Origin: Prescottella defluvii
GTDB lineage: Bacteria; Actinomycetota; Actinomycetes; Mycobacteriales; Mycobacteriaceae
Direction: 5' to 3'
DNA: 64,000 bases
Assembly: GCA_029690005.1 (NCBI GenBank)
Contig: CP121458.1
Location: 4,481,872 to 4,545,871, forward strand
Shown in pieces: positions 2,251 to 41,875 of this stretch (positions within the stretch are counted from its first letter, which is position 1; each line of letters starts with the position of its first letter). The translations under genes were made by a program, and so were the position numbers. The notes beneath the pieces are model-generated. The model made no database searches, was not told the DNA's origin, and saw nothing but the letters and a program-made list of their open reading frames with translations.

Positions 2251-3330
2251 GTTGATCGACCGACCTAAAAGGAGGAGCTTCAGTCGGTGATCCGGTGAGT
2301 ATCCAAGCATCGATGTCGGAGTGATCCCGCGCGTCGCAAGGAACGAGGTATCGGGCGGTTGACGGATTGGGGGCGTTCGGACGGATGAGTCCGACGGCAC
2401 CACGGCAACGACGAATCGACCGCAATCTCGCTATGCGAAACTGACCCGCATGGCGCTGTACTTTTCCGAGCGCGCACTGTCTGAAATCGGACCAGCGCAG
2501 ACCACGTACAAAGTCGATAGATCTATTTCGATCTCCAAGGTCGTGGGATTGAGTCGGACGGTCTCCCGGGAGATGCGCTCAAAGCCAGCAACCATCGTGA
2601 ATCAAACGGTGCGGCGAGCGAAGGGGCGTTCGTGGCAACGCCTCGGCGACGCGAAGAACGGTTCCCTCGTCAGGTTCAACACTCAGCGCCTTCGACTGGG
2701 CGCACTACCCATCCTCGGGATCGGAGGGCACACCGCCGAGGAGGAGCGTACTGGCGAACATCTCCTCTGGGCCATTATAGGAATTGCCGATGACGTGTAC
2801 CAACGCGACTGGATCGGCAACCGACACCGGTGGCCCGGCCGGGTGATGCTCGTGGGAAGTCGTGACGGACATTCAACTCTGAGAAACCAATTCACTCCTC
2901 CTTCGGCAGAGATGCCCCACCGCTATCCGCACAGTTTTCCGTCTTCGCCGGAATCGTTGTCGGAGGTGCTCGGCGGACTCCTCGATGTAGCCCCGAGCAC
3001 ATCCGAGACGAGATGGACTATCACCACTTCAGAACTCCCTACGAGATGGCAACCCAGGTAGCCGATCGGATCTTCGACCCGCCTGCCAATCCCTTCGGGT
3101 ACCGCGAATGCAGCGCGCACGTTTGGGCCTATACAAGCCACTGCGAACATTCCGTGGATGGCTCGAAGCTCTTGATCGTCCGCCCATCCTCATCGAAGAA
3201 CAGGACTGAGCGCGGGCACCCCGGTCGCTTCGGCGGTATCGGAGTGTCCGAGAGATCCGGATTGATAGAGTCTGGCGGGGTGAACGCGACCGCCGTCGGC
3301 CGCGAGATTCAACGACAACGGGGCGGTGAC

Positions 3331-6300
3331 GTGGCACAAGGCAGTGACCGGTGGGTCGAGGTGTCGAAGTCGGCGTTCGCCCACGAGGCCGAGGGTCTGA
3401 GCTTCCTCCAGGACATCGTCCCCAACGCCTCCCCGTATCGCGCGTGGACGAACTTCGAGTTCATGGACAACCACGGTCTCTGGCACGAGGTCGATGCCCT
3501 GGTCCTCGGTCGGCGTCGTCTGCATCTGATCGAGCTCAAGCATTTCGTGGGTCGTCTCGGAGGCACCGAGACGAACTGGGTGCGGCAGCTACCGAGCGGC
3601 AAGGTCCGCACCCAGCGCTCTCCCCTCCTCCTGACTCGCCGCAAGGCACAACGGCTCGCGACGCGCATCGAGGAGGAAGCCCGCAAGGTCGCGATCGCGC
3701 GCGGGCTCAATCCGGAGAAGGTGCGCCGGGCGCTGCCGTTCGTGCAGGAGTCGGTGTTCCTGCACGCCGAGGGTTTCACGGTCGACATGCCGGAGCTGGC
3801 GAAGTCGGGGCTGTTCGGCCTCGACGGCGACGAGCACGGGTCCCACCTGCCGGGTATCTCGACTCGTATTCTCGAGCCTCCGATCGACGGGCGACGTGTC
3901 GACGAAGACATGAGCGTAATCATTGCCCTCGCCCTCGAGAACCTCGGCATCTCCCGCCGCACCGAGCGCGAGGCCGGGTCGTGGACGATCTCGGGTGCCC
4001 CGCTGGCGTCGGGTGACGACTGGCAGGAGTGGCCGGCTAAGCACAAGGGCACCGACGAGCATGCCCGTGCCCGCATCGTCTCGTTCCGCCCGGGCACTCC
4101 GGCGCACGCCCGTGCGGCAGCGCATCGGAAGATGCAGCGCGAGTACACGCTGCTGTCGTCGCTGCGGCACGAGTCGATCGTGGCCCCCGCGACCTGGTGC
4201 AGGACGACCACGGCAATACGGTCCTCGTCTACCCGGAGACCCCGGGTACGAGCCGCTCGATCTGGCGTTGGCGACGCGCACCCTCACCGCCGAGCAGCAG
4301 TTGACGGTGTTGACGCAGGTCGCGGAGGCGCTTGCGTATGCGCACCGCAATCACGTCGCGCACCGCGGCCTCGGCCCGTCGACGGTGCTGATCCATACCG
4401 AGCGACTGGACGCGGGCCGGGTCGACGTGCGGCTGGTGGACTGGTCGTGGGCGGGGCGCATCCACGACGGAAACACCCGGTCTGCAACGATGCTCGGCAC
4501 CGCGGTCACCGCGACGGGCGGGGCGGCTGCGGACGAGGTGTATCAGGCGCCGGAGGACCGGTGGGCGCCGGATTCGGATCGCATCGCGCTCGACGTCTTC
4601 TCCCTCGGTTCCCTCGCGTACTTCCTGCTCTCGGGCGGGCAGAACCCGGCGCGCGACCGCGCGGCACTGCTCGAGCGACTACGAGTCGAACAGGGTCTGG
4701 ACCTGGCCGCGTCGACGGGACGGTTCGTCGACGAGCGACTGCGCGAGCTGGTGCTGCGGACGACCAGCCCGTCGGTGTCGAAACGCATTGGCATCGATGG
4801 GAAGTCGGGTCCGCCGACGTTCGGTGCGCAACAGTTCGCGGCCGAGCTGGACGCGTACCGGCGGGAGCAGGCACCGACCGCCGCCGTGCCGGAGATCGAC
4901 CCGCTGAACCCGCCGACGGGCGCGCTGCTCGACGACCGGTTCGAGGTGCTGCAGGTGCTCGGGTCGGGGTCCACGGCCCGCGGCATCCTCGTCGCCGACC
5001 ACGACCACGACGGCCGCCAGCGCGTCCTCAAGGTCGGTCTGGACGACACGGCGACCCATCGGCTGCAGGACGAGGCGGAGGTCCTGACGACGCTCGCCCA
5101 ACAGCAGCCGCCGGTGCCCGGCGTCGTCGAGCTGATCGAGGGCCCGCTGCAGCTGGCGCACCGCACCGCGCTGCTGCTGACCAACTGCGGCGAGCAGACC
5201 CTCGCCGACGTCATCCGCTACACCCCGCTCGGGGAGGCGCAGCTCAAGACGTGGGGCCTGGGCCTGCTGGACGCGGTCGTGGCGCTGGACACGGCGGGCA
5301 TCACGCACCGCGACATCAAGCCGTCGAACCTGGGGCTGTCCCGCCCGGACGGCAAGCGTTCGGCGAAGGCGCGGCTCGCGCTGTTCGACTTCTCGCTCTC
5401 GCGTGCCGCCGTCGAGCTGCTCGACGCCGGCACTCCCCGTATCGGGACCCGTTCCTCGGCACAGGGATCCGCACCGCCTACGACTCGGCGGCCGAGCGCT
5501 GATTCGGCGGCGGTGGTGCTGTACGAGATGGCCACCGCCAGCACCCCGCTCTACGGCGACGGGGTCAGCGACCCCCGGGTGCTCACCGACGACGTATCGG
5601 TGTCGGCGGAGGACTTCGGCGGCCACTCGCGCACCCGCGCGGAGGCGCTCGCCGGGTTCTTCCGCACCGCACTGGCCCGCGACGTGCGCGACCGGTTCGA
5701 CACCGCGACCGCGATGCGTAAGGCGTGGGCGGCGGTGTTCGCCGCGAAGGCCGTCCATCCCGAGCCCGCCTCCGCGGTGGTGCACGCGCCGGTCATCACC
5801 GCGACCGCGGAGGTGAACCCGCCCACGGTCGCCGTCGGGGAACCCGTCGCCACCTACGGTTCGTTGCAGGTGCTCGCGACGGAGTTCGCGCGCGCGTCGG
5901 CGACGAAGTCGTCGGCGATCCGCCGGCAGGTTGTAGAGCTGGTCCTCGGCAGCCACGACGCCGCGCCGGCCGACCCGTTCGTCACCTACCAGGTGCTGGC
6001 ACCGCTCGCCGGGGTCACACCGGGCCGCATCGCCCAGATTTTCGGCGAGCTGCGTGACCTGTGGGCGAAGAACCCGCAGTCGGCTGCGACCGTGGATTCG
6101 CTGTATCGACGCGGGCTCGTGCTGCTCGAATCGACTGGCGGCGCAAGCACTCCCGAGCTTCTCGCCCGCGAGCTGGCCGCCGCGCTGGACACGGACGGAC
6201 TGCGTGATCCGCAGCGCACCGCCCTCGGGGCGTTGCGTTTGGTCCTCGCATCGGCCCCGCCCGCCCCCGAACCGGAGCCCGGCGAGGAGGCGACGGACAC

Positions 6301-7471
6301 CGAGAGCCTCGACCTGCAGTTGGTGCGCCGCCAGTCGACGGGCACGGTCGCGATGATCGCGACGCCCGCGGTCGCGCGCCGCCTTCCCGCGGCCCTGGCC
6401 AGGGAGGCGGACGGCCTCGTCGCGGCCGCTGACGCTCAGGGTCTGGCGCTGGTTCCGCCGACGGACGCCGATCGGCCGCTGCGAGCGGCCGCGGCGGCGG
6501 TGCTCGACATGGCACCGGATCAGGTAGAGATCCCCGGTTACGCGCTGCTGCGGATCGCGGCCGCGTCTTCCGGCGAGGTGTCGCTGTCGGCGCGCGACGA
6601 GCTGCATGCGCACGCCCTCCCGATCCGCGACGTGTTGACACTGCTGCTGCGGGGCCTGTCCGATTCGGACACGTTCGGCCGGGCGGAGCTGGAATCGCGT
6701 GTCGCTGCCCGGTTCCCGGCGCGGGCGAAGGCGCTCCCCCGCCGCCCGGAGCTCGACGGTCTCGTCGCGGCCGTGGTGCCGGGGATGGCGTGGAGCGAGG
6801 AGCGCGGGCGCTACGAGTTCGAGAACGCAACGCAGCGGCTCTCGCACGTGCCCACCCTGCACACCCTCGCCGGTTCGCCTGCCGTCGCAGGCGGTTCCGG
6901 CAGCGATGTCGAACTGCTGCTGCAAGCCAGCATCCGGGAACGCACCTTCCGGGCGCTCGGGGTACCGATGGGCGCGTCCGATCAGGTGGCGGACGCACTG
7001 GTGGAGCGATTCGGGGCGGTGCACATTGACGTCACGGATGCGCTGCTGGACGAGCTGCGCTCGCGTGCGGAGCTGGCCGGCATTCCGTGGGACGCGATCC
7101 TCGCCGCCGACTCCGGCGCGGCCGCGGACCGAGAAGGCTTGAAAGGGTTTGTCGCACAGTCCATCCCGGCGGTCATCGACACCGTCAACTCGGCCGGTGG
7201 CCCGGTGGTACTGACCGACCTGTCGACGCTGGCGGCGTACGGGCAGCTTGGGGCGTTGCAGGCGTGGGTGGACGTGACGAATCCGCCGCCGCACGCGGTG
7301 TGGGCGCTTATCCCGCAGCCGGAGGAGTCCGGTGGCCGGCCAGGTGCTCGCGTCGACGGGACCGCGCTACCCCGTACCAGCCCGGAGCAGTTCGTGCAGG
7401 TGGACCGGCTCGGTCTGCGCGCACTCCTTGCCAGTAACGATGAGAAGCACACGATGAAGGAGCATGTCTGA
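3331..7471 (+). CDS. pglW: BREX type 2 / Pgl serine-threonine kinase PglW: N-terminal NERD-like domain plus two tandem protein-kinase domains. Two 1-bp frameshifts near 4192 and 4250.
   Basis: NERD-like motif DALVLGRRRLHLIELKHF. Kinase 1 has HRGLGPSTVLI...DWSWAG. Kinase 2 has GSGSTARG...HRDIKPSNLGL...DFSLSRA. Reading frame goes 1 to 3 to 2 across VAP|RDLVQDDHGNTVLVYPETPG|YEPLDLALA, consistent with two single-base deletions. Stop TGA overlaps the pglX ATG (TGATG). Start uncertain: ATG 3013 is the longest ORF, GTG 3331 lies just before the NERD domain. Confidence 0.8.
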
Positions 7472-10400
7472 TGGCGTTGGCCACGATCTCGGGAGCCGCG
7501 CTCAAGGATGCGCTCAAGCCGCAGCTGACGCTACTCGTCGACGACATGCGGACTCGCCTGACCGCCGACGCCGATGAGCTGGCACGCTGGCGGACCACGC
7601 ACCGCGCTGCCGTCGCCGAGAAGCGAACCGCCGTGTCGTGGACCGACTGGTCCGAGGATCAGCTCACCCAGGCCGCGGTCGGCTGGCTGCTCACGTCCGT
7701 GTTCGTGCGGTTCTGCGAGGACAACTTTCTCCTCGGCGATACCGCCGTCTGGATCACCCACCCCGACCCTATGCTCCGGCAGCGGGCCGTGGACGCCGAG
7801 CAAGCGTTCTACCGGAGCGATTCCGACAATTCGTACCGTGAGTGGCTCGAGCAGTCATTCGACGCACTCCGCGGGTTCCCGGCGACGCAGTCCCTCGTCG
7901 ACGAGCACGCGGCACTGAACATTATCGCGCCGTCGTCGGATGCGGTGCACCAGGTGCTGTCGTTCTGGCGGCAGGTCAATGAAACTGGTGAACTCGAGTG
8001 GACGTTTCGAGATCCCGAACTGTCTACACGCTTCCTAGGCGACCTGTACCAGGACCTGTCCGACTTCGCGAAGAAGAAGTACGCACTGTTGCAGACGCCC
8101 GAGTTCGTCGAGGAGTTCATCCTCGACCAGACTCTCGAACCTGCCTTCAAGGATCGGCCGCTGGAAGGGTTCAAGGTCATCGACCCGACGTGCGGGTCGG
8201 GGCACTTCCTGCTCGGCGCCTTTGCTCGATTGGTCGATCGGTGGCATCGGGAGGCCCCCGGGCTTGACCTGCGGACGCGGGTCGACAACGCATTGTCGTC
8301 CGTCTATGGAGTGGACTTGAACCCGTTCGCCGTGGCGATCGCCAAGTTTCGGTTGATAGTCGCGGCGTTGAAGGCATGCGGGGAAACAACTTTGGTGAAT
8401 GCGCCGAAGTTCGCGTTGAATCTCGCGAACGGGGATTCGCTGCTCCATGGGGCCGAGCAGGGTGGGGCGGCGGCCCTCGACTTCGGTGACCTGTCGTTCG
8501 ACAAAGACGCTGTGGTGTCGGGGTTCGCGTACTCGACCGAGGATGTGGCGCTGCTGCGGAAGATTCTCGCGCCGGGACAGTACGACGTGGTGGTAGGGAA
8601 TCCGCCGTACATTGTCGTTTCCGACAAGGCTTTGAACGCTCGGTACCGCGAGATCTACCACTACTGCAAGGGCAAGTACGCGCTCACAGCTCCATTCATG
8701 GAGAGATTCTTCGACCTCGCCAAGCCCGGCGAACGTGCGGGATGGATTGGGCAGATCACATCGAACTCATTCATGAAGCGGGAGTTCGGCGCACCGGTCA
8801 TCGAGGACCTACTCGCCAGGCTCGATCTCCGCCTCGTCGCCGACACGTCCGGTGCATACATTCCCGGCCACGGCACCCCGACCGTAATCATCGTTGGTCG
8901 CAACCACCCATCAGTCCACCAGAGTGTGCGCGCAATCCTCGGCATCCAGGGTGAACCGGGAGCACCCGATGATCCTGCCAGGGGCAAGGTGTGGACGTCG
9001 ATTGTCGAGCACGTCGACCAAGCCGGGTTCGAGAACCAATGGATCTCAGTTGCTGATCTCTCACGAGAGAACCTCAGTAAGCATCCCTGGAGCCTCAGCG
9101 GCGGCGGGGCGGTCGAGCTCCTGAACACAATTGAAACCGCAAAGATCGGTCAAGTCAGTGACCGAGTCACCTCTATCGGATCGACAGCCATCACCGGCGA
9201 CGACGATGCCTTCGAGTTCGGACGAACCTCACCGCCGCGTATCCGCATCAACGAGATCCCGACTCGACCCTTTATCACCGGAAGCATGATCCGGGATTAC
9301 TGCATCTCCGAGCCACATAATGTCATTTACCCCTATGGCGATTCTGGCCCGGCCCTTAACGACGCAGCGTCGGATCAAATCGAGAGATGTATGTGGCCAC
9401 TGCGCACTGGCCTCGCACGCGGCCTCGCGTTCGGAAAGACGCGTGCCGACAAGGGGATGCGATGGTACGAGTACATCCTCCCGAACCACCCACGCCTCGC
9501 ATCCTCCATGCTGATCACGTATGGCTTCATCACGACTCATCCTGGGTTCGTGCTCCATCGTGGAGGAAGGTCATCAACCACTCCGCGATGGTCTTATCCC
9601 TCGGCGATCTGCAATCCGAGGACGATCACCTGCGGCTGCTGGGCACCCTCAACAGCTCGACCGCCTGCTTCTGGCTCAAGCAGAACAGCCACAACAAGGG
9701 CAGTACTGTCGACTCGTCGGGAGCTCGCACCACACTGTCGGAGTGGGAGAACTTCTTCGAGTTCACCGGGACGACGCTGAAGGACTTCCCACTCCCGAAG
9801 TCGGCCCCGCTCAACCGTGCTCGCCTCGTCGACGAGCTTTCGCAACAGCTCGCAACCCAGGAACCCTCCGCCACGATCGAAGCGAACGGGGGCAGCATCG
9901 CGGTCATCGAATCTGCGAGAGCTGAGCACGCCCGTATCCGCGCTCTCATGATCGCCGAGCAGGATGAGTTGGACTGGGAGGTGTACCGGAACTACGGACT
10001 TGTCGACGAGGAGCTGTTCCTGCCTGTCGGCCAGGCTCCCGGGATCGCGTTGGGTGAGAGGGCATTCGAAATCGCGCTCGCCCGCAAGGTTGCGACCGGG
10101 GAGGCGGAGACCTCATGGTTCGAGCGCCATGGGTCCACGCCCGTCACAGAGATTCCCGCGCACTGGCCAGCAGAGTACCGGGACCTGGTGGAGAAGCGTT
10201 TGCAAGCGATCGAATCGAACCCATTCATCCGGCTGTTGGAGAAGCCGGAGTACAAGCGGCGGTGGGCTGGGGACTCGTGGGATGTGAAACTTTCCCGTGC
10301 GCTCAAGGACTGGCTGCTCGATCGACTCGAGGACAAGTCGCTGTGGTTCACCACGCAGGGCACCCCGCAGATGTTGTCCGTTGCCGAGCTCGCCGGGCAT

Positions 10401-11090
10401 GTGGAGAAGGACCCCGAGTTCATCACCGCACTCGACCTGTGGGCCGGAAAGAAGGACGCGCCAGTCACCGAGACACTGGTGAAGGTGCTCGCTGATGAGG
10501 CAGTGCCGTATCTGGCGGCGATGCGCTACAAGGACTCCGGTCTGCGTAAGCGCGCGGAGTGGGAGCGGGTGTGGGATCTGCAGCGTGACGAGGACGCCGG
10601 GCTGATCAAGGCGACCGACATTCCGGTGCCACCGAAGTACACCAGCGCCGACTTCCTCAAGTCGTCGTTCTGGAGTCACCGCGGCAAGCTGGATGTGACG
10701 AAGGAGCGCTTCATCTCCTACCCCGGAGCCGGCCGCGCCACCGACCCGACGCCGCTGTTGGGTTGGGCGGGTTGGAATCACGCGCAGCAGGGCCTCGCCC
10801 TGGCAACGATCTACGCATACCGCGAGTCCGAGGGCACGGCGCTCACCGAGCTCGTCCCGGTAGTCGCCGGCATCGCGGAGATTCTCCCTGGGTCAGGCAA
10901 TGGCATTCCGGCGTCGACCCCACCTTCGGCATCGACCTCGCCGACTACCTCACCGGACAACTCAACGAAAAGTCGGCAGCAGTCGGAGTCCCCGTCCCCG
11001 ACCTTGGCAACTGGCGTCCCCCAAGACAACTCGCGGCCGCAAGACCAAGGTGGGGTGAGTCTGTCGGACCCATCGGGCATCATCCGGTAG
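7471..11090 (+). CDS. pglX: BREX adenine-specific DNA methyltransferase PglX/BrxX. One 1-bp frameshift near 9562.
   Basis: Motif I DPTCGSGHFLLGAF. Motif IV VVVGNPPYIV. Conserved BREX-MTase C-terminal half (EDDHLRLLGTLNSSTACFWLKQ, WENFFEFTGT). Frame 1 to frame 3 at HRGG|KVINHSAM: ggaggaaagg appears to have lost one a. Confidence 0.85.
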
Positions 11091-11247
11091 TCACATGAGG
11101 AGGCAGTGGGCACCGTTGCCCACGGCGCAGTACCGAACGGAGCACTATGACCCGGACCGTCTTCCGGCGAGAAGCCTGTAGCCCCAAACTCTGCGCGACG
11201 CGAAGTGTCGCACAGCGGACAGCCGTCCTCCGTGCGGCGACAGTTCG

Positions 11248-11703
11248 ATGATTGCCCTCACCGAGGCGGTCGGGCCATCACTGATTCTTCTACTGACAGT
11301 GATCGTATTGCTGCTCACGTCGCGAAGGACCTTCTCGTGGCCACAACCTGAAACGTGGGTTGATAGCTCGTCTTTCGTAAGTGCCCCATCAGGCCGGAGC
11401 GACGACCTGGAGATCGCACTTGAGACCGCAGCTGCCGTGAACTCATACAATGTGCATGCAGAGAACGATCCGCGTGTCCGCCTTCAATCAGCAGTCAGGC
11501 TGAGACCTTCGGACTATCAAGTAGCGATCCGCGACATATCACGTCACTTCCGAGAAGGTCGAGTTGTGTCACTTGACCTTGCAGGCATGGATCCTCCGCA
11601 GGCCGCTCGACTTGTCGATTTCTGCAGTGGAATGACGACAGTCGCATCCGGCTGGATATTTCGAGTAACGGACAGAGTTATAGTTCTCACACCATCTACA
11701 TAG
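11248..11703 (+). CDS. Membrane-anchored SepF-domain (DUF552) protein: N-terminal TM helix, linker, C-terminal SepF core
   Basis: C-terminal 65 aa (PSDYQVAIRDISRHFREGRVVSLDLAGMDPPQAARLVDFCSGMTTVASGWIFRVTDRVIVLTP) matches the SepF core position by position, following the pattern P..Y..A..I......VV..L.....QA.RLVDF.SG.....G.I.R......TP. N-terminus LILLLTVIVLLLTS is hydrophobic. TTG start. AT-richer than its flanks. Intact. Confidence 0.7.
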   Translation: MIALTEAVGPSLILLLTVIVLLLTSRRTFSWPQPETWVDSSSFVSAPSGRSDDLEIALETAAAVNSYNVHAENDPRVRLQSAVRLRPSDYQVAIRDISRHFREGRVVSLDLAGMDPPQAARLVDFCSGMTTVASGWIFRVTDRVIVLTPST

Positions 11704-11756
11704 GCCGAATCCACGGACAGCCCTGTCAATTTCTATGATTCTAGCGGAGGGTTCCA

Positions 11757-12629
11757 ATGACTTCGATAGCAAATCTCGATGACTCTTACGGAGAAATCCC
11801 TTCAACTCCGATAAATGAGCAACTACTGACCCTCAATCACCAAATTCGGCAAACGGAACACTCACTGGCTGTGGCGCAGCGCAGAAACAAATGGCTCAAG
11901 TTGTCCTTGATATTTGGACCACTACTGGCAGTTCTCCTGTACTGCATCCCGTGGATCCCAGGGATTCCCACAAGGGTGTTAGTGGCCGCGTTCATTCCAG
12001 CGATACCGTTCTCCATCGCATTCTGCATCGCCGCGTACCGTCTGAACAAATACCCAGGCGGACCCGCCAAACCCGGCAGCCGAGGCAAAGAGCGAGTTAG
12101 CGAAGGACAGATCGAACTCCAGCTTGCACTCCAACGCGAAACCAGAAAGTCATTTCTTGCCAGCGCAGATATCCCAACTAGAGTTCGTCGAATCACCTAC
12201 AAGGAAGATGCTTACTCGGATATCGATCAACTTCGAATCGAGAGTAATCGCTATCGGCAAGTCAACAACTTCCTGCAGGGGATCCTCATAATCGGTTCAC
12301 TGGCCGCAACAGCTGCAGCAGGAATTGCGTCGGAAGTCCCCTCACTAAGGTGGGCCACCCTGGTTATTACATTCACGGTCGGCTTGTCCAGTGGGTTCAT
12401 GGGGTACTTCAAGTACAAGGAACGCAGCTTCTACCTTCAGCAAACAGCCGACGCAATTGAGCATGAGTGGGAAGCTTTCGACATTGGGGTCGGTCGCTAC
12501 AAACGGATCACCGATGAAGATGAACGGCTCGCAGAATTCGTCGAGGAAGTGCATCGCCTCAAGTCCGAACAGAAGAAGCGTCAGCAGAACTTGGAGCAAC
12601 CGCCAGAATTGCGCAATACGAACGATTAA
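11757..12629 (+). CDS. 4TM protein with two SLATT/DUF4231-like halves (candidate pore-forming effector)
   Basis: Two TM hairpins (LSLIFGPLLAVLLYCIPWIP / VLVAAFIPAIPFSIAFCIAAY and ILIIGSLAATAAAGIAS / WATLVITFTVGLSSGFMGYF), each followed by a helical cytoplasmic segment. After TM4, KYKERSFYLQQTADAIEHEWEAFDIGVGRYKRI...LAEFVEEVHRL fits the DUF4231/SLATT post-TM signature. 54 bp downstream of the SepF-like gene, same strand. Low GC. Intact. Confidence 0.55.
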   Translation: MTSIANLDDSYGEIPSTPINEQLLTLNHQIRQTEHSLAVAQRRNKWLKLSLIFGPLLAVLLYCIPWIPGIPTRVLVAAFIPAIPFSIAFCIAAYRLNKYPGGPAKPGSRGKERVSEGQIELQLALQRETRKSFLASADIPTRVRRITYKEDAYSDIDQLRIESNRYRQVNNFLQGILIIGSLAATAAAGIASEVPSLRWATLVITFTVGLSSGFMGYFKYKERSFYLQQTADAIEHEWEAFDIGVGRYKRITDEDERLAEFVEEVHRLKSEQKKRQQNLEQPPELRNTND

Positions 12630-13087
12630 TTCGAAAACCCGAATTGTCCTTTTTTAGGGGGCCTGACTCCACGCGCAGGTGGGTCGAGCCTCCACTGACA
12701 TTGGCTCTGAATCAGCTTGCATGACAGCGCCTTCGCCGATGTCCTAGAAACCCGCACGAAGCCGGCAAGGTGGGCTCGTCAATCTTGGGCGGGCAACCCG
12801 GAATCCGGACTTCATTCTGATTGCCCGAGCAAAGTCGATGCGCCATTGAGGACAAACACCATCGCCGGCGCCAGGCCGCGCCAGGCTCAGCCGTAAAATC
12901 CAGTCGAATACGAGACTATTTTGACCACAATAAGCGGTCAGTTTTCCTGACCTAGCTTTTCACCTGAGCATGCAGGAGTACCCTCAGACTGTGGCGGAGT
13001 TCGGAAACCGCAGGCCTTCAGGAAACCCGAATCGGCTGAGAGCGGCGAGCCGCATGCACTCTCGATTGGGACGGACCGCAAAACTGC

Positions 13088-16000
13088 TCACGTGGTAGCC
13101 CTGATCATCGAGCCAGAGGCGGTTAATGGCGTTGACTGGTGCAACTGAAAACCCATTGCAAGTTTGGCGGGGTTCGGCCCAACGCGATAGCAGTTAGCGT
13201 TGGAGCACGAGGTGGATCCAGGCGGAGGGTTGTCAGTTCTACAACTCAGACACATCCACCCCGGCAATGCCTGGCCGGCGATTCTGTTCAGAATTACTGG
13301 CAGATCTGCTGGTCGACAGCGGACAACACGCCTGACCGCTGCCTCCTGGACATACCCATCCTTATCGTCCAGGAGCGCGCGAAGTTGATTGCTGACCACG
13401 TCTCCGCTCATTACATCAATCATGTCCGCCGCAACGGTACGTAATACTGGATCGTCGCTAGCGGTCCAGCATTCTGGCTCTGGTCCGGACTCAAGTGACG
13501 CCAAGGCGATCGCCGCCATCCGCTGGTGCTGCGTGCTGACAACGAGCCTAGGCAACAGGGCCCGCAATCGAGGTGCTGCCTCATCGACGACGGTAGCTTT
13601 CCACAGCGACCTGGCTGCAAAGTTCGCCTGACCGATTCCGAGGGTGAACAGCCGTGTCAGCAGCTGCACTGAGGCCTCCGGTGACCTCACTTCGCACCAG
13701 TCAGGATCATCACGTTCTCGCGAGTTGTCGAAGAGGGCGAAGTACGGGTCTGTCCCACCCCAACGCTCCATTCGGTCCAGAACCACCGTCGCTTGACTTG
13801 CGAGTACGCCTCGGTCGAAATTGTATAGTGTCGCTGCAAGCTCGATAAGGTCTCGGAGAAATGCATCACTCTGCCGGTGCAGGTGCTGAACTCCGCCATC
13901 GTTCATTTGAAGTGTCGCGACGAAGTCAGCTAGCTCACTGAGAAGTGTTGCCTGCGCGGTGGTCAGCTCAGCCGGCGTCCCGGCAGCAGCAACCAGTCGA
14001 ATGAATTGCGCGTAGACGTCCTCGTCATAGTCTGCCCACCACGTCGGGAATCTCACCTCTCCAGCGATCTTCGCTGCATCCTCATGGACAAATCGAACGT
14101 CGACTTCGCAGCCCTTGTCAGCGAGGAGCTGTGTGAGGGAATCTCGAAGACCCTGGGGTGCGCCAATGGCACATGCGGCAACGTGCGAAGATGCACCGGG
14201 CACATTCTCCAACAGTACTTCAGCAGCCTGGAGTTGCGTGCTAGCCAGGGTTCGGTCGACGAACCAAGCGGAAGGGAGAACGCTACCCGCTTCACCCGAC
14301 GAAGGCCGATCAGGCAGAGAACGCAGAGCGAGTACCTCTTCCAATAATTGAGAGTGCCTCGCGTCAAAGGTCTGGTGATCGAACTGAACTACTATTGACG
14401 CACGTGCGACCATTGCGTGCTCCGGGCCGTGCGTTTCGGCAGCCGCTTCTGCTGAATCCCAGAGCTCAACGGGGAGAGGCAACCTCGTCAGCGCCTCCCA
14501 GCTGTTCCATCCTTCCTGTGTTCCTTCCGCGACGTGAGCAATCAAGCTCTCGCCGACCAAGCGGACCATATCTTCGTCGAGTTCAGCTCCTTCCCTGAGT
14601 GCTTGGGCGATAGCGCTCGCCAATGTGGAGTTACCAGGGTTAGCCTTTAGCGCGTTTGCGGCAGTCCTCGACACTGCCGAGTCGAGGGCGCATGCAAGGA
14701 CTAGCGGCTCCATCTGCTGGCCAGCGATCCGCGCCTCGACCCATGACTGAATCTCGTCCGGTCGAGAAGTGATCCGAATGGCGTCGCCGATCTCCGCAAA
14801 TAGCGCAATTCGCGGGACAACAGTTTCCTCAGCACCAGACAGCACGAAGATGCCGGATTCATCGAACAGTCGAACTGCATCCTCTGCAGCAGTTGCAGCC
14901 TGCGCCGACGGAAGTCCCCAGGGTTCGCGCATCTCATCAGCGATGGCGTTTACGACTGATTGTGCGTTGGCTTTTCCCTCACTGTTCTGAATATGCGCCG
15001 CTTCGCTTACGAACGCCTGCATAATTGCTTTATTTAGAGCACGGCCACCGAGCGGACCCAGCGAACGTCCGCCGCCGCGCTGTATCTCTCGCCCAACTAT
15101 GACTTCCTTGACAATTGCCTCCAGTATTCGCGCGCGTCGCCGAGGGAGCCGCTCGGTAGTTCTCCGCACAGCGAGGAGAGACAACAGAATCGACATAAGA
15201 GGAGTTTCACGAAGCACGTCGTCCTCGGACAGGGCTGAGCGAACCCACACCGAACGCTCGCTGATCCAGCCTGGCCGGTCGACGGCATTCGGCACCGTCT
15301 TAGCCGCTGCGACCTCAAGAACAGCAGCTATCGTCGTTGCAGCATCGGAGGGTGGACGCAAGTGCACCGAGGTCCATTCGAGGCTAGCTGCCTGACCATA
15401 GGCGACATCGCGAGTCGCCAAGAGGACACAAACACCTTCCGGCAGATCCGCAACGAACGAAGATATCTCGCTGACCACATCGGAACGTCGGTCATATGTC
15501 TCATCTAATGAGTCGAGTAGTAGAGCAACGTTGCCATCGTTATCAAGTCGTTCATTTATCTCGGAAGTAAGCACATCCCGATCCGAAGGCCTCATGTCTC
15601 GCACACAAGCGGCGATGAGCCGGTCCCTGAAGCTCATAGTCGAACTGAGCGCGTCGACCTGACGGAGAGAAACGCGCACCGGCAGAGGGAACGTCGGATT
15701 CAGAGCGAGCTGGGCCGCCAGGCGCCTGAGGGCAGTGGACTTTCCGCCACCAGGAAGCCCGGTCAAGATGACACGGCCGCGGCGAAGAAATGCCCAGATG
15801 AGCTCGCGCTCACCGTGATCGCCACTCGGATCCGTGGCAACCCTGATACCCGCATCCGCCTTGTCAAAAGGGATAGCGGGGAGCTCCGCGCCAAGCGTGC
15901 GCAAATCGATCACCGAGCCATCGCGTATCAAAGTCGCACTGTATCGCTCAAGCGCCTGTCGCCGAATCTCGAGCGTGGCCGCAGGAGAACTTCCATCGCT

Positions 16001-16618
16001 GTTAATCCTCATTCCTTCACCGTGCAGGGCGGCAAGCCAACCAGCGAGGTCATATCCTCCTCTCCGTCGAGCCGTGCGTCCCGAAAGTGTCGTTAGTGTT
16101 GCCCATGCCTTTCGTGCCGAATCATGGCCGCCACCGGAGACGACATGGCGCAGGTGATCGATGGCTTGCTGTGATCCAGGCTCGTCTGGCTCTTCCGCCT
16201 TGAGCTCCCAAACAACTGCACACTTCAGCACCTTCTGACGGTCGGCTTCATCAAGGTCGACGAGAAGCTTCCGGACTACCGCAAGTATCTTTGCTTCGCC
16301 CGCCGTGGGAGAGCCCGGATGATCGGTCCGTTCGCGTTCCAATACCTGATGGAGCAATCGCATCGGGCCACTCAGTGCGCCCGCAACGACTACAAGACGA
16401 TCTGTGGCGGGATCGAGCCCTTCTCCTGCAATCTTCACCCACTGCGCGACGGCCTCCTTCAACGCCTTTCCAGCGTTAAGGGTCCGCTTGGCCTGCACGA
16501 AAGCGCGCCATCCCGAGTCGAAGGTGATCGCTATGTCGTCGACTGAGCTATCGGTCTCTAGTGACACCGATGCCACCCGCGCGTGGGCGGGAGGGATTCC
16601 GACACCCGGAAGTGACAC
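13088..16618 (-). CDS. NACHT/STAND NTPase: unknown N-terminal domain, P-loop NTPase, helical/HEAT-repeat C-terminal region, terminal RanBP2-like zinc ribbon
   Basis: Walker A ILTGLPGGGKSTALRRL. Walker B NVALLLDSLDE. HEAT/PBS-lyase-like repeats (LRALLDDKDGYVQEAAVRRVVRC). C-terminal WMCLSCRTDNPPPGSTSCSNANC. ORF open from 16873; in-frame GTGs at 16618 and 16576 are more plausible starts. Intact over about 3.6 kb. GC clearly lower than the BREX genes. Confidence 0.75.
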   Translation of the reverse strand: MSLPGVGIPPAHARVASVSLETDSSVDDIAITFDSGWRAFVQAKRTLNAGKALKEAVAQWVKIAGEGLDPATDRLVVVAGALSGPMRLLHQVLERERTDHPGSPTAGEAKILAVVRKLLVDLDEADRQKVLKCAVVWELKAEEPDEPGSQQAIDHLRHVVSGGGHDSARKAWATLTTLSGRTARRRGGYDLAGWLAALHGEGMRINSDGSSPAATLEIRRQALERYSATLIRDGSVIDLRTLGAELPAIPFDKADAGIRVATDPSGDHGERELIWAFLRRGRVILTGLPGGGKSTALRRLAAQLALNPTFPLPVRVSLRQVDALSSTMSFRDRLIAACVRDMRPSDRDVLTSEINERLDNDGNVALLLDSLDETYDRRSDVVSEISSFVADLPEGVCVLLATRDVAYGQAASLEWTSVHLRPPSDAATTIAAVLEVAAAKTVPNAVDRPGWISERSVWVRSALSEDDVLRETPLMSILLSLLAVRRTTERLPRRRARILEAIVKEVIVGREIQRGGGRSLGPLGGRALNKAIMQAFVSEAAHIQNSEGKANAQSVVNAIADEMREPWGLPSAQAATAAEDAVRLFDESGIFVLSGAEETVVPRIALFAEIGDAIRITSRPDEIQSWVEARIAGQQMEPLVLACALDSAVSRTAANALKANPGNSTLASAIAQALREGAELDEDMVRLVGESLIAHVAEGTQEGWNSWEALTRLPLPVELWDSAEAAAETHGPEHAMVARASIVVQFDHQTFDARHSQLLEEVLALRSLPDRPSSGEAGSVLPSAWFVDRTLASTQLQAAEVLLENVPGASSHVAACAIGAPQGLRDSLTQLLADKGCEVDVRFVHEDAAKIAGEVRFPTWWADYDEDVYAQFIRLVAAAGTPAELTTAQATLLSELADFVATLQMNDGGVQHLHRQSDAFLRDLIELAATLYNFDRGVLASQATVVLDRMERWGGTDPYFALFDNSRERDDPDWCEVRSPEASVQLLTRLFTLGIGQANFAARSLWKATVVDEAAPRLRALLPRLVVSTQHQRMAAIALASLESGPEPECWTASDDPVLRTVAADMIDVMSGDVVSNQLRALLDDKDGYVQEAAVRRVVRCRPADLPVILNRIAGQALPGWMCLSCRTDNPPPGSTSCSNANCYRVGPNPAKLAMGFQLHQSTPLTASGSMIRATT

Positions 16619-17210
16619 TCCAGCGAGACCACACGCGACCGCGTATGCGGCAACCCCACGACGGTATTCAGTTCCTCCATCGCCGGATGCACCTGCGATA
16701 CTCCCGGGTCGCGCGATAGACCTACAATCCACGGCCAAGAATATATAGGTAGGCGCCGTACAGCGGAACAGCTCGCGGCGTGGACCTAATCTGTGTCTCC
16801 AGTCGGTCACGATCACCCGCTGGCGTACTTGAAGCCACCGTGGGCCAGGACCGCGTACACGGTTCGGCCACACCGATCGACCCGGGTGACAAAGCTCCCG
16901 ATCCGTGACCTGCGCTACCTTGTTGGCAGGCTCGTTCGGCTACGCAGGGCGATCGCCAATATTTCACGGGAGAAGGAATGGGCGCATGCTCTGTCGCCCT
17001 GTCTTTAATTGCTACAACACCTGATTTCGCCCGAGCAAGGGCGTTTCATGTGCGAGCTATGGCGGCGTACGCCCAACATGAACCCGCTGTACAGACCCGG
17101 CAGACCAAATGTGGCCGAGGCCCGTGGCACGATGTAGCTTGCGCGGAGCCGACTCGTTCCCCCACACACCACCAGGCCAGATTCCCGCCCGAACGGAGTT
17201 TTTAACCACA

Positions 17211-20200
17211 ATGTTCCCGGCGCCACGTCCAGCTCCGCTCGTACGCTGCGCGAGACCTTCGACATCCCGCAGACCCACGGCACAAACGACTATGTGCTGC
17301 GACTGTCGGACTCCGTCGCCGACGACCAGCTGGCAGCCACCGTCGACTCCTACGTCGTCACCCCCGCTATCGCGGAGGCGTTCGACCGGGCGCTGGCCGT
17401 CGTCGAGGAGTCGCTGAGCAGCGGCGAGAACAAGGCCGCCTACCTCAACGGTTCCTTCGGCTCCGGTAAGTCGCACTTCATGGCGGTGCTGTACGGCGTC
17501 CTCGGGCACTCCCCCAAGGCGCTGTCGGTCCCGAGCTGCAGCCGATAGTCGCCAAGCATCCGCAGATCGCCGGCGCGAACCTGCTGCGACTGACGTTCCA
17601 CTTCCTCGACTCGACGACCATCGAGTCGGCCCTGTTCGAGCAATACCTGCGCCAGATCGCGCGGCTGCACCCGGACGCACTGCCGCCGGTTCTGCACTCC
17701 GCGGGCGGGCTGTTCACCGACGCCGACAACCGTCGCGCCGAAGTCGGCGACGAGAAGTTCTTCGCCACCCTCAACGCGGCCGGCGGCACCACCGCGTCCA
17801 CAGGCACCGTCAACTGGGCCGCGCTCGGCGCCACCACCGGTACCTGGACCGCCGCCACCTACGCCGCGGCCACCGCCCCCGACGCCGACCCCGCCGAGCG
17901 GGCCCGGCTACAGCAGGCGCTGATCGCGTCCTACTTCACCAGCTACTCGCGCAACACCGACTGGCTGTCCCTTCGAGGACGGGCTCGCGGTCATCGCCGA
18001 CCACGCCAAGTCCCTCGGCTACGACGGCGTCGTCCTGATGCTCGACGAGCTGGTGCTGTGGCTGACGTTCCTGATCACCGAACGCGAACGCTTCAACGCC
18101 GAGGTGCAGAAGATCACCAAGCTCGTCGAGACCAGCCGCGGCCGGCGCGCCGTCCCGGTCGCATCGTTCATCGCCCGCCAGCACGACCTGTCCCGCTGGG
18201 TCGCCACCGGCTCGGATTCCGGCGCCACCCAGCAGGCGCTCGAGCAGGCGTTCGCGCACCAGGCGGGCCGCTTCGGCAACGTCGAGCTCGGCGACGAGAA
18301 CCTCCCCTTCATCGCAAAGAGGCGACTCCTGCAGCCCCTGGGCCCCGACGCGCAGGCCGCACTCGACGCTGCGTTCGCCCGGCTCGACCGCAACCCGCAG
18401 GTGTGGGACGTGCTGCTCGACGGTGTCAACACCGACGACCAGCACCGCGGCTCCGATGCCGACGCCTTCAAGCTCACCTACCCGTTCTCCCCCGCCCTCA
18501 TCGCGACACTGCGCGCCCTGTCCGGGCAGATGCAGCGCGAACGCACCGCGCTAAAGGTGATGCAGCAGATGCTGCAGGACTCCGCCGACCGGCTCACCGT
18601 CGACCACGTGATCCCCGTCGGCGAAGCCTTCGACTACGTCATCGACAGCGCCAACTCCACGCCCATCAACGACGCGGCCGCGCAGACGTTCAAGACCGCG
18701 CGCACCCTGTGGACCGAGAAGCTGCGACCCCTGCTGTTCCGCAACGCGGGCGTCGACGAATCGGTGTCCGACGACCAGGTGCCGCCGGGGCTGCGCGCCG
18801 ACATCCGCATCGCCAAGACCCTGCTGATGTCCGCTGTCGCCCGAACGTGCCCGCACTCAAGCAGATCGACGCCGGACGGCTTGCGTCCCTCAACCATGGC
18901 AGCGTCGTTTCCCTGATCCCCGGCGACACCGTCGGCCAGATCACCAACAAGGTCAAGCAGTGGGCCGCGGAGATCCCCGAACTGTCCGTGACCTCGGACC
19001 AGAACCCGATCATCTCCGTCACCCTCGAATCCGTCGACTACGAACGGATCATCACCCGCGCACAGGGCGAGGACACCGACGGCCGCCGCCGCGAACTGAT
19101 GCGATCACTGCTCGGCGAACACTTCCGCGTGCTCGGTGCCGAGCGCACCCTCGACGACGCCCTGCTGCGGACCGTCGTCTGGCGCGGCACCGACCGACCC
19201 GTCGAGGTAGTGTTCGGCAACGTCCGCGACCGCGGCTACCTCTCCGACGACCGGTTCCGCCCCGTCACACCGGGCGCGCTGCGGCTGATCGTCGACCTGC
19301 CGTTCGACGACCCCGGTCACACCATCACTGAGGACCACGACCGCATCTCGGAGCTCCTGCGCACCGGGCAGGACCGCTTCACCGTCGCATGGCTACCGAC
19401 CTTCTTCCCGGACAAGGTGGTTCGCCAGCTCGGTCGACTCGTCGTCCTCAACTACGTCCTCGCCGGTGAGCGCTGGGCCACCTACGCCAACGAACTGTCC
19501 GAGGGTGACCGGATCGCCGCCCGCTCGATTCTCGAGCAGCAGCAGTCCCAGGTCCGCGGGCAGCTCGGCAACGCCATCCAGGTCGCCTACGGCACCGCCT
19601 CCGGGGCCAAGTTCCCGAGGGCCAGCCGCCGCTGCGGTCGTTGCACGCCGGGTTCACCGCGCAGCCGCCGATCGGCAACACCCTCGGCGAGGCAGTCGAC
19701 CGGCTCATCGGCGACACATTCGACGCCCTCTACCCCGACCACCCGGACTTCAGCCCGGCGGACGCACTGATCACCCGCCGCGACCTCAACACCGTCCTCA
19801 CCCGGTTGCGGGAGGCACAGTCCAGATCGACGGACGCATCCCCCTCGAAGGCGGCGCCCGCGGCGACCGCGACATCGCCCGACGCGTCGTCGAGCCACTC
19901 GGCATCGCGAAGGTCAACGAAACCCACCTCATCTTCGGGCCGGAACAGTTCACCGCCTGGCAGACCCGCATCACCCAGGAACTCGCGCGGCTCTCGATCG
20001 ACGAGCAGGGCGACGTCGACATCGACGTGCTCCGCACCGCGATCAACGCCAGCGGCCCCAAGCGCGGTCTCACCCCCGACATCGTCGACCTCATCGCGGC
20101 GGCCTGGGCGGCGCAGACGAAGCGATCCTGGTTCCTGCACTCGTCGCCCACCACCGAGGCGATCATCGGTGATTTCCGCCGGGCACCACCCTGCGGCTCG

Positions 20201-21006
20201 AGCCGCTGCCGGAACGGCAGACGTGGACCGACGCCGTCACCCGCTGGAAGTCGTGGACCGGGCAGACGGTCAACGAGTACCTCACCGCAACCAACCTGGC
20301 CGCATTCGCCGAGCAGGTCCGCGACTTCGCCCGGTCCGGTTTCGCCGGCCGCGGCCAATTCGTCTCCGCGCTCGGGCAGGCCTACAACTACTTCGGCCTC
20401 GACCCCGAGGTGGGCCGGCACGCGCTCGCCTCGGATCTTCTCGATCTGTTCGAGGCGCGTCTCGCGCACGTCACCAACCTCGACCTGGTCGCGGCCGTCG
20501 CGGGAGCGTCGTTGCGTGGCAACGACATCGAGGCAGGGAAGTCGCTGGCTACCGCCGACGCCGTCGAACAGGCACTGCTGCGGTATCCGCTGACCCGCTG
20601 GAACGTCCTGAGGGAGGCTGCAGCAGGCTCGGACGAACGAGCCGTGCAGGCCAAGGCGATCCTCACCGATCTCGCGAAAGCGGTGCAGGCGCAGGAGTTC
20701 ACCCAATCGTTGTCCACCTCGCTGGCCGCCGCCGACCGTGCCCGCGACACCTGGCTCGAGGCCGCGGTGATCGTGACGCCGCCCCCGGTCGTCCAGCCGC
20801 CGGTGACACCGCCCCCGGTCATCCAGCCGCCCGCGACGCCACCAAACAACCCGGACGACATCCCGCTACCGCCACCGGCTCCCACCGAGACGTTCACGGT
20901 CACCGGCGCGAACGCCACCTCGGCCGTCGAGGCGCGCCTCGCCGCCCTGCTCGCCAACTACCCGAACGACGAGTTCACCGTCACCATCACCAGGGTGCCG
21001 CGATGA
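17211..21006 (+). CDS. pglY: BREX ATPase PglY/BrxC, multiply frameshifted (at least 5 single-base indels)
   Basis: BrxC N-terminus incl. [16 protein letters not shown] Walker A. Collinear BrxC-like segments continue through ORFs 18038-18916, 18058-19770, 19466-20593, 19641-..., 20410-21006. Frame switches near 17527 (ccc gag to ccgag), 17975, 18855 (gcc ccg to gcccg), 19620, 19810 and 20180. C-terminal Pro-rich repeat [22 protein letters not shown]. Start approximate: an early shift near the ATG at 17211 is likely. Confidence 0.8.
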
Positions 21007-23797: not shown

Positions 23798-25086
23798 GCG
23801 GGCTGTCGCCGGTGCGCCGCCGGGAGATCCTGCAGTCGCTGCGTCAGGGCACCGTCCCGGACGGCAACCTCGACGTTCTCGCCGTCGGTATCGACCGGTT
23901 CGCGAGCACCGTGGACGCGGACCTCGACGCCGTCGCCGCGGGCGGTTCGCTGTTCAAGGCGGTCCGCGGCGAGTACGGCTCAGGCAAGACGTTCTTCTCC
24001 CGGTGGGTCGAGCAGCGCGCGATGCGCCGCGGCCTGGCCGTCGCCGAAGTACAGATCAGCGAACTCGAGACGCCGCTGCACAAACTGGAGACCGTGTACC
24101 GCCGCACCATCGAGGAACTGCGCACCTCGGCCTTCGCGAAGAGCGCGTTCCGGCCGGTCATCGACGCGTGGCTGTACGGGATCGAGGAGGACGCGGCCAC
24201 CGCCGCCGGGGTCGACGAAGCCACGTCGGCGCAGGTGGAAGAGCTGCTCGAACAGCGACTCGCGTCGGTGGCGACCGCCACCCCCGTGTACCCGATGGTG
24301 TTGCGCGCGTACCGCTCCGCGCTCGAACGGGAGGATGCCGCCACCGCCGACGCGCTCATCGCCTGGCTCGGCGGACAACCCCATGTCGGTGCTGCGGCGA
24401 AGCGCACCGCCGGGATCCGACAGGACGTCGACCACTTCCTCGCGATGGGCTTCCTGCAGGGTCTGCTCGCCGTCCTCAAGGGCGCCCGGCACCCCGGTCT
24501 CGTCCTCGTCATCGACGAGGTCGAGACCCTGCAGCGGATGCGCAGCGACTCTCGCGCCAAGGCCCTCAACGCGTTGCGGCAGTGGATCGACGAACTCGAC
24601 TCCGGCCGCTACCCCGGCCTGTACCTGATGATCACCGGCACACCGGCGTTCTTCGACGGCCGCTCCGGTGTACAGACGCTGCCGCCCCTGGCGCAGCGGC
24701 TGCACACCGACTTCGGCACCGACGCCCGCTTCGACAACCCGCGCGCGCCGCAAATCCGGCTCACCGGCTTCGACCTGGACCGGCTCGTCGAGGTCGGCAT
24801 CCGCGTGCGGGACGTCTACGCCGACGGCTCCGCCGCTCCCGAACGGGTGTGCCGCCTCGTCGACGACGCCTATCTGCGCGACCTGGCGTCCGCGGTCGCC
24901 GGTGAACTGGGCGGGAAGGTCGGCGTCTCGCCACGGCTGTTCCTCAAGAAGCTCGTCGCCGACGTCCTCGACCGCGTCGACCAGTTCCCCGATTTCGATC
25001 CGCGGCAGCACTATTCGCTCACCATCGCGGACACCGAGAAGGCGGAGGCGCTACGCGCCGCCACCGCCGACGAGGTGGAGCTGTGA
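23794..25086 (+). CDS. brxD: BREX ATP-binding protein BrxD (DUF2791 P-loop)
   Basis: GTG overlaps the pglZ stop (GTGA). Walker A RGEYGSGKTFFS. Walker B LVLVIDEVE. About 430 aa. Intact. Confidence 0.8.
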   Translation: MSGLSPVRRREILQSLRQGTVPDGNLDVLAVGIDRFASTVDADLDAVAAGGSLFKAVRGEYGSGKTFFSRWVEQRAMRRGLAVAEVQISELETPLHKLETVYRRTIEELRTSAFAKSAFRPVIDAWLYGIEEDAATAAGVDEATSAQVEELLEQRLASVATATPVYPMVLRAYRSALEREDAATADALIAWLGGQPHVGAAAKRTAGIRQDVDHFLAMGFLQGLLAVLKGARHPGLVLVIDEVETLQRMRSDSRAKALNALRQWIDELDSGRYPGLYLMITGTPAFFDGRSGVQTLPPLAQRLHTDFGTDARFDNPRAPQIRLTGFDLDRLVEVGIRVRDVYADGSAAPERVCRLVDDAYLRDLASAVAGELGGKVGVSPRLFLKKLVADVLDRVDQFPDFDPRQHYSLTIADTEKAEALRAATADEVEL

Positions 25087-29226: not shown

Positions 29227-29304
29227 CTCCTCCAGCGAGACGAACCGAACACCACTCACGAGCACGGCCCGACAGGCTTCCGCGACAGGACATGCCTCCA
29301 CCCG

Positions 29305-41861: not shown

Positions 41862-41875
41862 GCTCGCTGTGTCCG

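Follow-up and report, generated by a model that had tools for sequence, protein, structure and literature searches.

A SepF-like/SLATT gene pair and an Avs-like STAND gene, probably independent cargoes, between pglX and pglY of a BREX locus in Prescottella defluvii

We analysed a 64,000-nucleotide stretch of the Prescottella defluvii genome (contig CP121458.1, positions 4,481,872 to 4,545,871; hereafter the window, whose own numbering is used throughout) in which the pglX and pglY genes of a type 2 bacteriophage exclusion (BREX) locus are separated by about 6 kb of DNA carrying three intact genes. Two of them code for a SepF-like protein and a SLATT membrane protein (hereafter the pair), and the third, convergent with them, codes for a signal transduction ATPase with numerous domains (STAND). 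Our results show that the pair is an autonomous two-gene operon that has spread horizontally among Actinobacteria, and the STAND gene is well supported, by fold and motifs, as coding for a putative Avs-like defence NTPase with its own predicted nuclease effector. We favour, with some reserve, the reading that the spacer holds two functionally independent cargoes, an Avs-like antiviral STAND NTPase and a membrane conflict pair, inside a BREX locus that is possibly decayed. An earlier interpretation of this DNA, made without database searches (the sequence-only reading), had put a single three-gene abortive-infection system first and two independent cargoes second, and it is the second proposal that fits the neighbourhood counts and the nuclease of the STAND protein.

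Results

An alignment of SLATT homologs was used for a motif-based scan of one genome per species, covering 185,579 representatives of all bacteria and archaea. The scan returned 70 loci, 40 of which have a full-length ortholog of the window protein (47-72% identity), and a SepF-like gene lies immediately upstream on the same strand in 39 of these 40. In the remaining locus (L040) the upstream gene encodes a protein of 371 amino acids (aa) with a C-terminal SepF domain. In most loci the two genes are 6-58 nucleotides (nt) apart, and many SepF-like and SLATT matches in metagenomes fall on common contigs. The two genes are co-inherited, with identity matrices that are correlated at r 0.40, a value reached by none of 2000 permutations. 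As the sequence-only reading had allowed for, the two genes recur as a pair without this STAND family, in 40/40 genomes; a relative of the window STAND protein or of PglW, PglX, PglY, PglZ or BrxD was found in none of the 70 SLATT loci.

Purifying selection on both genes is strong. The ratio of nonsynonymous to synonymous substitution rates (dN/dS), calculated for syntenic Micromonospora and Amycolatopsis loci with unsaturated dS (0.5-2.2), is 0.02-0.12 for the SLATT gene and 0.08-0.16 for the SepF-like gene. The composition of the pair is foreign to most of its hosts, since in about 33 of the 40 species it forms a 1.4 kb islet of 0.49-0.60 guanine-cytosine (GC) content in DNA of 0.65-0.76 GC, and the DNA directly flanking the islet is at genome GC. 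At third codon positions, GC (GC3) is 0.45-0.68 in the pair against 0.85-0.95 in the adjacent genes of most of the 40 species, and the low value has been retained across in-place divergence in syntenic Micromonospora loci (dS ~0.55-0.65). One such low-GC3 pair lies at 9463-10828 of locus L016. The stable low GC3 of the pair in high-GC hosts has no explanation yet and offers a testable evolutionary pattern.

The distribution of the pair is patchy (~40 hits among the species representatives), its hosts are mostly filamentous actinomycetes, and no copy was found among the Streptomyces representatives recovered by the motif-based scan. No DNA nearly identical to the window was found on plasmids, and comparison of the 40 loci gave no conserved non-coding flanks except among close relatives. 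An apparent natural fusion of SepF and SLATT in L033/L035 was rejected; its two tblastn hits lie in different frames, and the long open reading frame (ORF) is therefore a high-GC artefact.

The STAND gene has two candidate starts, TTG 16738 and GTG 16732, and its homologs place the start near the former. We recovered 172 full-length homologs of ~1150-1240 aa, covering 90-96% of the query, from Streptomyces, Kitasatospora, Nocardia, Lentzea, Arthrobacter, Micromonospora and Microbacterium. The N-terminal domain, as modelled by AlphaFold (predicted local distance difference test, pLDDT, 88.5), has the Cap4-like nuclease fold, with SeAvs3 as its closest match (listed figure 13.8), followed by Cap4 (13.1), LmuA (12.3) and HamA (11.8) and then by many PD-(D/E)xK restriction enzymes. 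The sequence-only reading had called NACHT, HEAT and zinc-ribbon parts, and this call holds: the NACHT match exceeds its cut-off (35.9 bits vs 26.7, E 8e-9), HEAT_2 matches are recorded for homologs, and the four C-terminal cysteines, like the E..DD..QxK residues and both Walker motifs, are nearly invariant in 38 homologs. A few of the homologs carry the source annotation 'ribosomal protein L40E'. Among PADLOC models the protein matches PDC-M54A (E 8e-15, residues 60-418) and weakly mad8, and none of the Avs models. Neither the STAND nor the SepF-like protein of the window has a high-identity entry in the protein collection searched.

The homologs of the STAND gene occur as single genes, with Wadjet, a CBASS operon, DUF4365 and IS110 transposases as neighbours, and they are likewise lower in GC than the DNA that flanks them. 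The pair is absent from 5/5 other loci of the STAND family (L071, L072/73, L081, L082); a metagenome scan with the STAND alignment yielded two usable loci. No BREX gene was called in the four annotated STAND loci, so that neither these nor the 70 SLATT loci show a recurrent linkage to the BREX core. Since the pair occurs without this STAND family, the family without the pair, and the STAND protein bears a Cap4-like nuclease effector of its own, our results argue against both the single abortive-infection system and the proposed use of the SLATT and SepF-like proteins as effectors of a STAND sensor. At 4.6 kb from the STAND homolog of Streptomyces paromomycinus, an unannotated ORF of 91 aa (L072, 17133-17408, minus strand) was observed to encode a SepF-like core (E 2e-5 against the SepF-like protein of the window); it has neither a transmembrane (TM) helix nor a SLATT partner.

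A second case of the window layout was observed in Actinosynnema sp. CS-041913 (L040, 8804-14670). There, a 371-aa SepF-domain protein with a BTAD-like N-terminal part and a SLATT protein are followed by a convergent gene for a 1151-aa protein, which has a PDC-M54A-like Cap4-nuclease N-domain and no recognisable NTPase. It shares only the Cap4-like N-domain with the window STAND protein (E 2e-4 over 55 residues). A convergent PDC-M54A-like Cap4-nuclease protein right after the SLATT gene is thus seen in two of 41 pair loci, the window and L040, and the co-occurrence amounts to 2/41 from the pair side and 1/6 from the STAND side. We read this adjacency as co-location in permissive or defence-rich sites and not as an obligate partnership.

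The SepF call for the first gene of the pair stands, with a match to PF04472 above the curated cut-off (50.5 bits vs 27, E 2.4e-13). The protein consists of a TM helix (residues 7-25), a family-specific linker helix and the SepF core (residues 85-150), and the profile of its family (34 homologs at 40-56% identity) matches SepF of Bacillus subtilis (3ZIH, E 5e-8) and Corynebacterium glutamicum (E 1e-3). The hydrophobic N-terminal helix, predicted in 30 of 31 orthologs, stands where an amphipathic membrane-targeting helix would be expected. Basic residues directly follow the TM helix, and from this charge pattern the core is predicted to be cytoplasmic. The invariant G128 of the family is equivalent to G109 of B. 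subtilis SepF, which we take to be needed for SepF polymerisation and of which a G109K variant is deposited as 3ZII. K125 and F131 of C. glutamicum SepF are FtsZ-contact residues in the pocket for the C-terminal peptide (PMC7118173); the equivalent of K125 is a near-invariant arginine (R139) in the SepF-like family, and that of F131 is I, V, L or M in all members and never aromatic.

The SLATT protein has 367 homologs, one of which (P0001, from P. defluvii) is 100% identical, and its start codon is preceded at 7 nt by a ribosome-binding site, GGAGGG. The domain call of the sequence-only reading was right for residues 150-278, which match SLATT_1 (NF033634, 80.7 bits vs a cut-off of 41, E 9e-23), and DUF4231 is also above its cut-off (29.6 bits vs 24.7, E 1e-6); a tandem of SLATT domains is unproven, as only the C-terminal half is significant. 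We read the protein as having four TM helices, three of which exceed the hydropathy threshold and all of which appear in an AlphaFold2 (AF2) model (pLDDT 76.8). In the SLATT_1 domain two modelled helices pass through the membrane stretch, the first alone passing the threshold, and the cytosolic C-terminal helices are nearly invariant among orthologs. The N-terminal half, an extra helix with two TM helices, is of uncertain origin. Its helix pattern in the AF2 model parallels that of the C-terminal half; alignment of the halves was weak (hhalign E = 0.49), as were the matches of the N-terminal half alone to SLATT_1, in register, in two of nine orthologs (E 0.03-0.08). Foldseek comparison of the model with the PDB gave no match below E 1. 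Sub-threshold matches of this half (11757-12191) and its orthologs to SepX/GlpR divisome and PspM profiles (E 0.003-0.3) were also observed, and probably reflect transmembrane composition, although they are curious given the SepF-like partner.

The flanks of the pair are unrelated between genera, with 127 Pfam families in the 144 genes within two positions of it and TetR, seen four times, as the commonest. No enzyme family recurs among these 144 neighbours, and the SepF-like protein is the sole conserved partner of the SLATT protein; integrases occur in nine loci, and XRE regulators are recurrent. A scan of two genes on either side in 41 loci, for which no background was computed, found a defence-type gene in about 10. 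Immediately adjoining the pair, a defence gene is present in ~7 of roughly 34 independent contexts, window included: a type IV restriction enzyme in four syntenic Micromonospora loci, a Hachiman-like helicase (L013), Tmn/YobI (L029), GmrSD/HEC-05 (L031), an SspH-like ATPase (L032) and the PDC-M54A-like protein of L040. For the pair, these figures are only suggestive of a defence role. The case that would have spoken against any such role, a pair confined to core cell-division loci, was not seen; contexts vary, none of them a cell-division context, and no dcw gene was found in any of the 40 pair neighbourhoods.

More distant SLATT_1 genes have partners other than the SepF-like gene. Shorter SLATT_1 genes were noted in Streptomyces beside a triad of protein kinase, PP2C-like and vWA genes (L064-L070, ~4800-9200), and another is cargo of a Tn7-like transposon beside an AbiE toxin-antitoxin pair on a linear plasmid (L075, NZ_CP108539.1). 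The hypothetical protein (H1) encoded 5' of a plasmid-borne SLATT gene was considered and found not to be SepF-like. Saccharopolyspora flava has another SLATT paralog (L005, 13921-15643) at 4.5 kb from the pair, preceded by a gene for a secreted M23-peptidase-like protein, the same neighbour as in Kribbella loci.

In the window itself, which is actinobacterial DNA of high GC, the three genes between pglX and pglY are intact, as first read (Table 1), and the base composition of the 6.1 kb is uneven. The lower GC that the sequence-only reading ascribed to all of it was confirmed for the pair and its downstream spacer (11.2-13.0 kb, 0.52-0.55) and not for the STAND gene, which at 0.57-0.62 is no lower than the 5' half of pglX (0.59-0.63); from pglY to brxHI the values are ~0.67-0.72. 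A repeat search for insertion scars or terminal repeats of the 6 kb gave short matches at chance level only, and no integrase or transposase marks it as a single inserted element. Rfam gave zero matches in 10.5-17.8 kb, and promoter hits were no commoner than in shuffled sequence. The hairpin between the convergent genes is terminator-like on both strands, with fold z-scores of -3.5 (+) and -3.1 (-).

Table 1. Features in and beside the pglX-pglY spacer (window positions)
Feature	Position	Strand	Remarks
pglX, left flank	7471-11090	+	frameshifted near 9570 and again near the 3' end
SepF-like gene	11248-11703	+	intact ORF, 151 aa
SLATT gene	11757-12629	+	intact ORF, 290 aa
Hairpin	12932-12958	.	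candidate two-way terminator between the convergent SLATT and STAND genes
STAND gene	open frame 13088-16873, likely 13088-16738	-	intact ORF, ~1216 aa
Cys4 zinc ribbon, C-terminal	13190-13252	-	C-x2-C-x12-C-x4-C, read from sequence
NACHT P-loop module	15386-15772	-	Pfam, residues 368-496; Walker A GLPGGGKST, Walker B LLLDSLDET
Cap4-like PD-(D/E)xK nuclease domain, N-terminal	15884-16696	-	motif E..VDD..VQAK
pglY/brxC, right flank	17211-21000, approximate	+	PADLOC BrxC pieces and GC3 phase switches; several frames

Discussion

Examination of the spacer leads us to treat its two cargoes separately. For the STAND protein, analogy with Avs suggests that the C-terminal helical (HEAT-like) region would bind a phage protein, that ATP-dependent oligomerisation would follow ligand binding, and that the nuclease domains would then be activated and cut DNA, so that infection is aborted or restricted. 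For the pair, the SepF-core domain would sit on the cytoplasmic side of the membrane, tethered there by a real TM helix, with the SLATT protein as membrane partner. The SLATT protein could be a membrane-permeabilising or membrane-perturbing effector, and a dimer or polymer of the SepF-like protein its gate or sensor, possibly reading the state of FtsZ or of the divisome, which would place the pair among conflict modules of abortive-infection or toxin-antitoxin type. The linkage and co-inheritance of the two genes, the purifying selection on them, their foreign composition and the fold and domain identities are shown here; each of these activation steps is inferred, as is a role of the pair in defence. 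Our leading guess for the pair, weakly held, is a membrane-acting conflict module; it is made because of SLATT precedents, the accessory, foreign and patchy character of the pair and its partial association with defence genes.

Several observations weigh against two independent cargoes of which the pair is a conflict module. The layout shared by the window and L040 may leave room for an occasional functional link between the pair and the large protein. Most neighbours of the pair are ordinary metabolic or regulatory genes and not defence islands, and no generator of a nucleotide or nucleic-acid signal was found beside the pair SLATT gene, unlike in known SLATT systems. A dN/dS as low as 0.02 is unusual in conflict genes, and searches of the phage and plasmid collections gave no match to the pair and so no vehicle for it. 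The aliphatic residue at the F131 position makes FtsZ binding by the SepF-like protein uncertain.

The conflict reading can be worded more narrowly, as a two-gene membrane immunity or abortive-infection module in which a SepF-derived sensor or gate controls a SLATT pore, for example to guard the divisome or FtsZ against phage inhibitors, and in which AT-richness keeps the operon silenced, for example by Lsr2, until it is needed. In this form the proposal is tentative, and we give it a low probability.

The pair could instead be an accessory envelope or cell-division module, acquired horizontally and placed in the BREX gap by chance, in which an additional SepF paralog, anchored in the membrane, acts with a membrane partner to recruit or modulate FtsZ. 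The bona fide SepF core, with its conserved G128 and its conserved basic FtsZ-contact position, would suit such a role, as would the very strong purifying selection, the mostly housekeeping or metabolic neighbours, the mainly filamentous actinomycete hosts and the weak SepX/GlpR profile matches in the N-terminal half of the SLATT protein. In dcw clusters, sepF pairs with ylmG. However, the pair is never found in or near a dcw or division locus, it is patchy and foreign in codon usage in most hosts examined, and none of the Streptomyces representatives that the scan recovered has it. In addition, the key aromatic FtsZ-contact residue is replaced, the SepX matches are far under their cut-offs, and SLATT domains are elsewhere linked to conflict systems (PMC7159879). 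We regard a division module as unlikely, although still worth consideration.

It is more doubtful that the pair is a selfish addiction cassette, of the toxin-antitoxin kind, in which the SLATT protein would be a membrane toxin and the SepF-like protein its neutraliser, retained because loss is costly and not for any defence against phage. A compact operon with tight spacing, foreign composition and variable insertion sites would be expected of such a cassette, and distant SLATT_1 genes do occur on Streptomyces plasmids and as the Tn7-like cargo beside AbiE. However, the pair itself is on no plasmid or phage record searched, and in Micromonospora and Amycolatopsis it is stable and keeps its synteny from species to species. 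One integrated abortive-infection system, in which SLATT and SepF-like effectors at the membrane are switched on by a phage-sensing STAND protein, has in its favour the adjacency of three genes in lower-GC DNA of a defence locus and the repetition of the layout, with a PDC-M54A-like large protein, in Actinosynnema, but it is very improbable given that 39/41 pair loci lack such a partner and all five other STAND-family loci lack the pair, that the convergent STAND gene is not co-transcribed with the pair and is separated from it by a terminator-like hairpin, that its product has its own nuclease effector, that the large proteins of the window and L040 are barely alike, and that PADLOC has no model matching either protein of the pair, neither of which is thus a catalogued PDC-M54A partner.

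On the reading of independent cargoes that we prefer, the STAND gene belongs to a known class and the pair is undescribed among modules of a SLATT protein and a partner, with a partner that is unprecedented. The STAND protein resembles Avs (SeAvs3) and bNACHT proteins in its N-terminal Cap4-like nuclease (as in SeAvs3), its central NTPase and its intact Walker A and B motifs, but it differs from Avs in that PDC-M54A is its only substantial PADLOC match (in the N-terminal part), in its NACHT-type ATPase and in its C-terminal Cys4 ribbon. It thus extends this well-known class by a further family of Avs-like nucleases, one that is widespread in Actinobacteria.

SLATT proteins have been predicted to be pore-forming effectors (PMC7159879), and in DRT10, a system of reverse transcriptase, non-coding RNA and SLATT-5, the SLATT protein is an effector required for defence (bioRxiv 10.64898/2026.04.29.721553). 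The pair is like DRT10, CBASS/SMODS-SLATT and GTPase-centred SLATT systems in being a small operon with a SLATT membrane protein beside a partner gene. Unlike in these systems, the partner is a membrane-anchored SepF-core protein and not an enzyme that produces a nucleotide or DNA signal, and the SLATT protein is of the SLATT_1 family with an extra N-terminal half of one helix and two TM helices. The likeness to canonical SepF (YlmF) comprises a core above the Pfam cut-off, the invariant G109-equivalent glycine, the basic FtsZ-contact position, a membrane tether and a small membrane-protein gene next downstream. The pair protein differs from it in having a true TM helix in place of an amphipathic one, a family-specific linker helix and an aliphatic residue at the F131 position, and the pair differs in never occurring in a dcw context, in its foreign codon usage and in its patchy distribution. 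A literature search found no paper linking SepF with SLATT or with anti-phage defence. The pair merits more attention than the STAND gene, since it combines a cytoskeleton-adaptor domain and a SLATT membrane protein in one operon that is conserved, strongly selected and spread horizontally. Should it prove to be a conflict system, its SLATT protein would have a partner that makes no nucleotide signal, and a SepF fold would for the first time be seen in use outside cell division; should it prove to be a division factor, it would represent an FtsZ anchor that is both mobile and accessory.

The split between pglX and pglY, taken as special in the sequence-only reading, proved ordinary: in the archetypal Pgl system of Streptomyces coelicolor, pglWX and pglYZ are two operons likewise separated by 6 kb (PMC4365076), and a gap is therefore to be expected from the archetypal layout. 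Auxiliary nuclease effectors inside BREX loci have been reported in thousands of taxa (PMC12839542). The window shares with type 2 BREX/Pgl loci both the 6 kb gap and the embedded nuclease, and differs in that its cargo of STAND gene and pair was seen here in no other BREX locus and in that its BREX genes are frameshifted. It is a further case of BREX loci gathering other defence genes.

According to PADLOC, the gene order around the 6 kb is ZacC (Zorya), PglW, PglX, the gap, PglY/BrxC, PglZ, BrxD and BrxHI. The overlapping junctions described earlier were confirmed from ORF coordinates for pglW/pglX (7471) and brxD/brxHI (25083-25086), as were the frameshifts of the BREX flanks, whose genes are broken across several frames by ORF coordinates, PADLOC pieces and GC3 phase. 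The PADLOC model for PglX matches one ORF with its positions 3-690 and another with 690-1132; in the second ORF, the final ~65 residues fall outside the match and, as read from the sequence, are of low complexity. The N-terminal PglY peptide was read in the same way (...YVLRLSDSV).

A ZacC-like protein (PADLOC E 2e-211), of which the C-terminal 749 aa are present and which is cut by the window start, is encoded at 1-2250, so that BREX is closely preceded by a Zorya-type system. Between zacC and pglW, a 203-aa ORF (2450-3061, 0.60 GC) is without Pfam or PADLOC match. On the 3' side of brxHI are genes for a Schlafen-group-3/DUF2075 helicase (27650-29140) and an HNH_2 endonuclease (29305-30177), which are probably further defence cargo; this stretch (27650-30177) is lower in GC too, at 0.60-0.63. 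Given the Zorya and BREX flanks, the Schlafen-group-3 helicase and the HNH protein, we regard the setting as a defence island. Farther along, RecB/RecC-like ORFs on the minus strand (38540-44819) overlap in different frames and have internal GC3 phase switches, so the frameshifts may not be confined to BREX; in both sets of genes they could be assembly indel errors or widespread pseudogenes.

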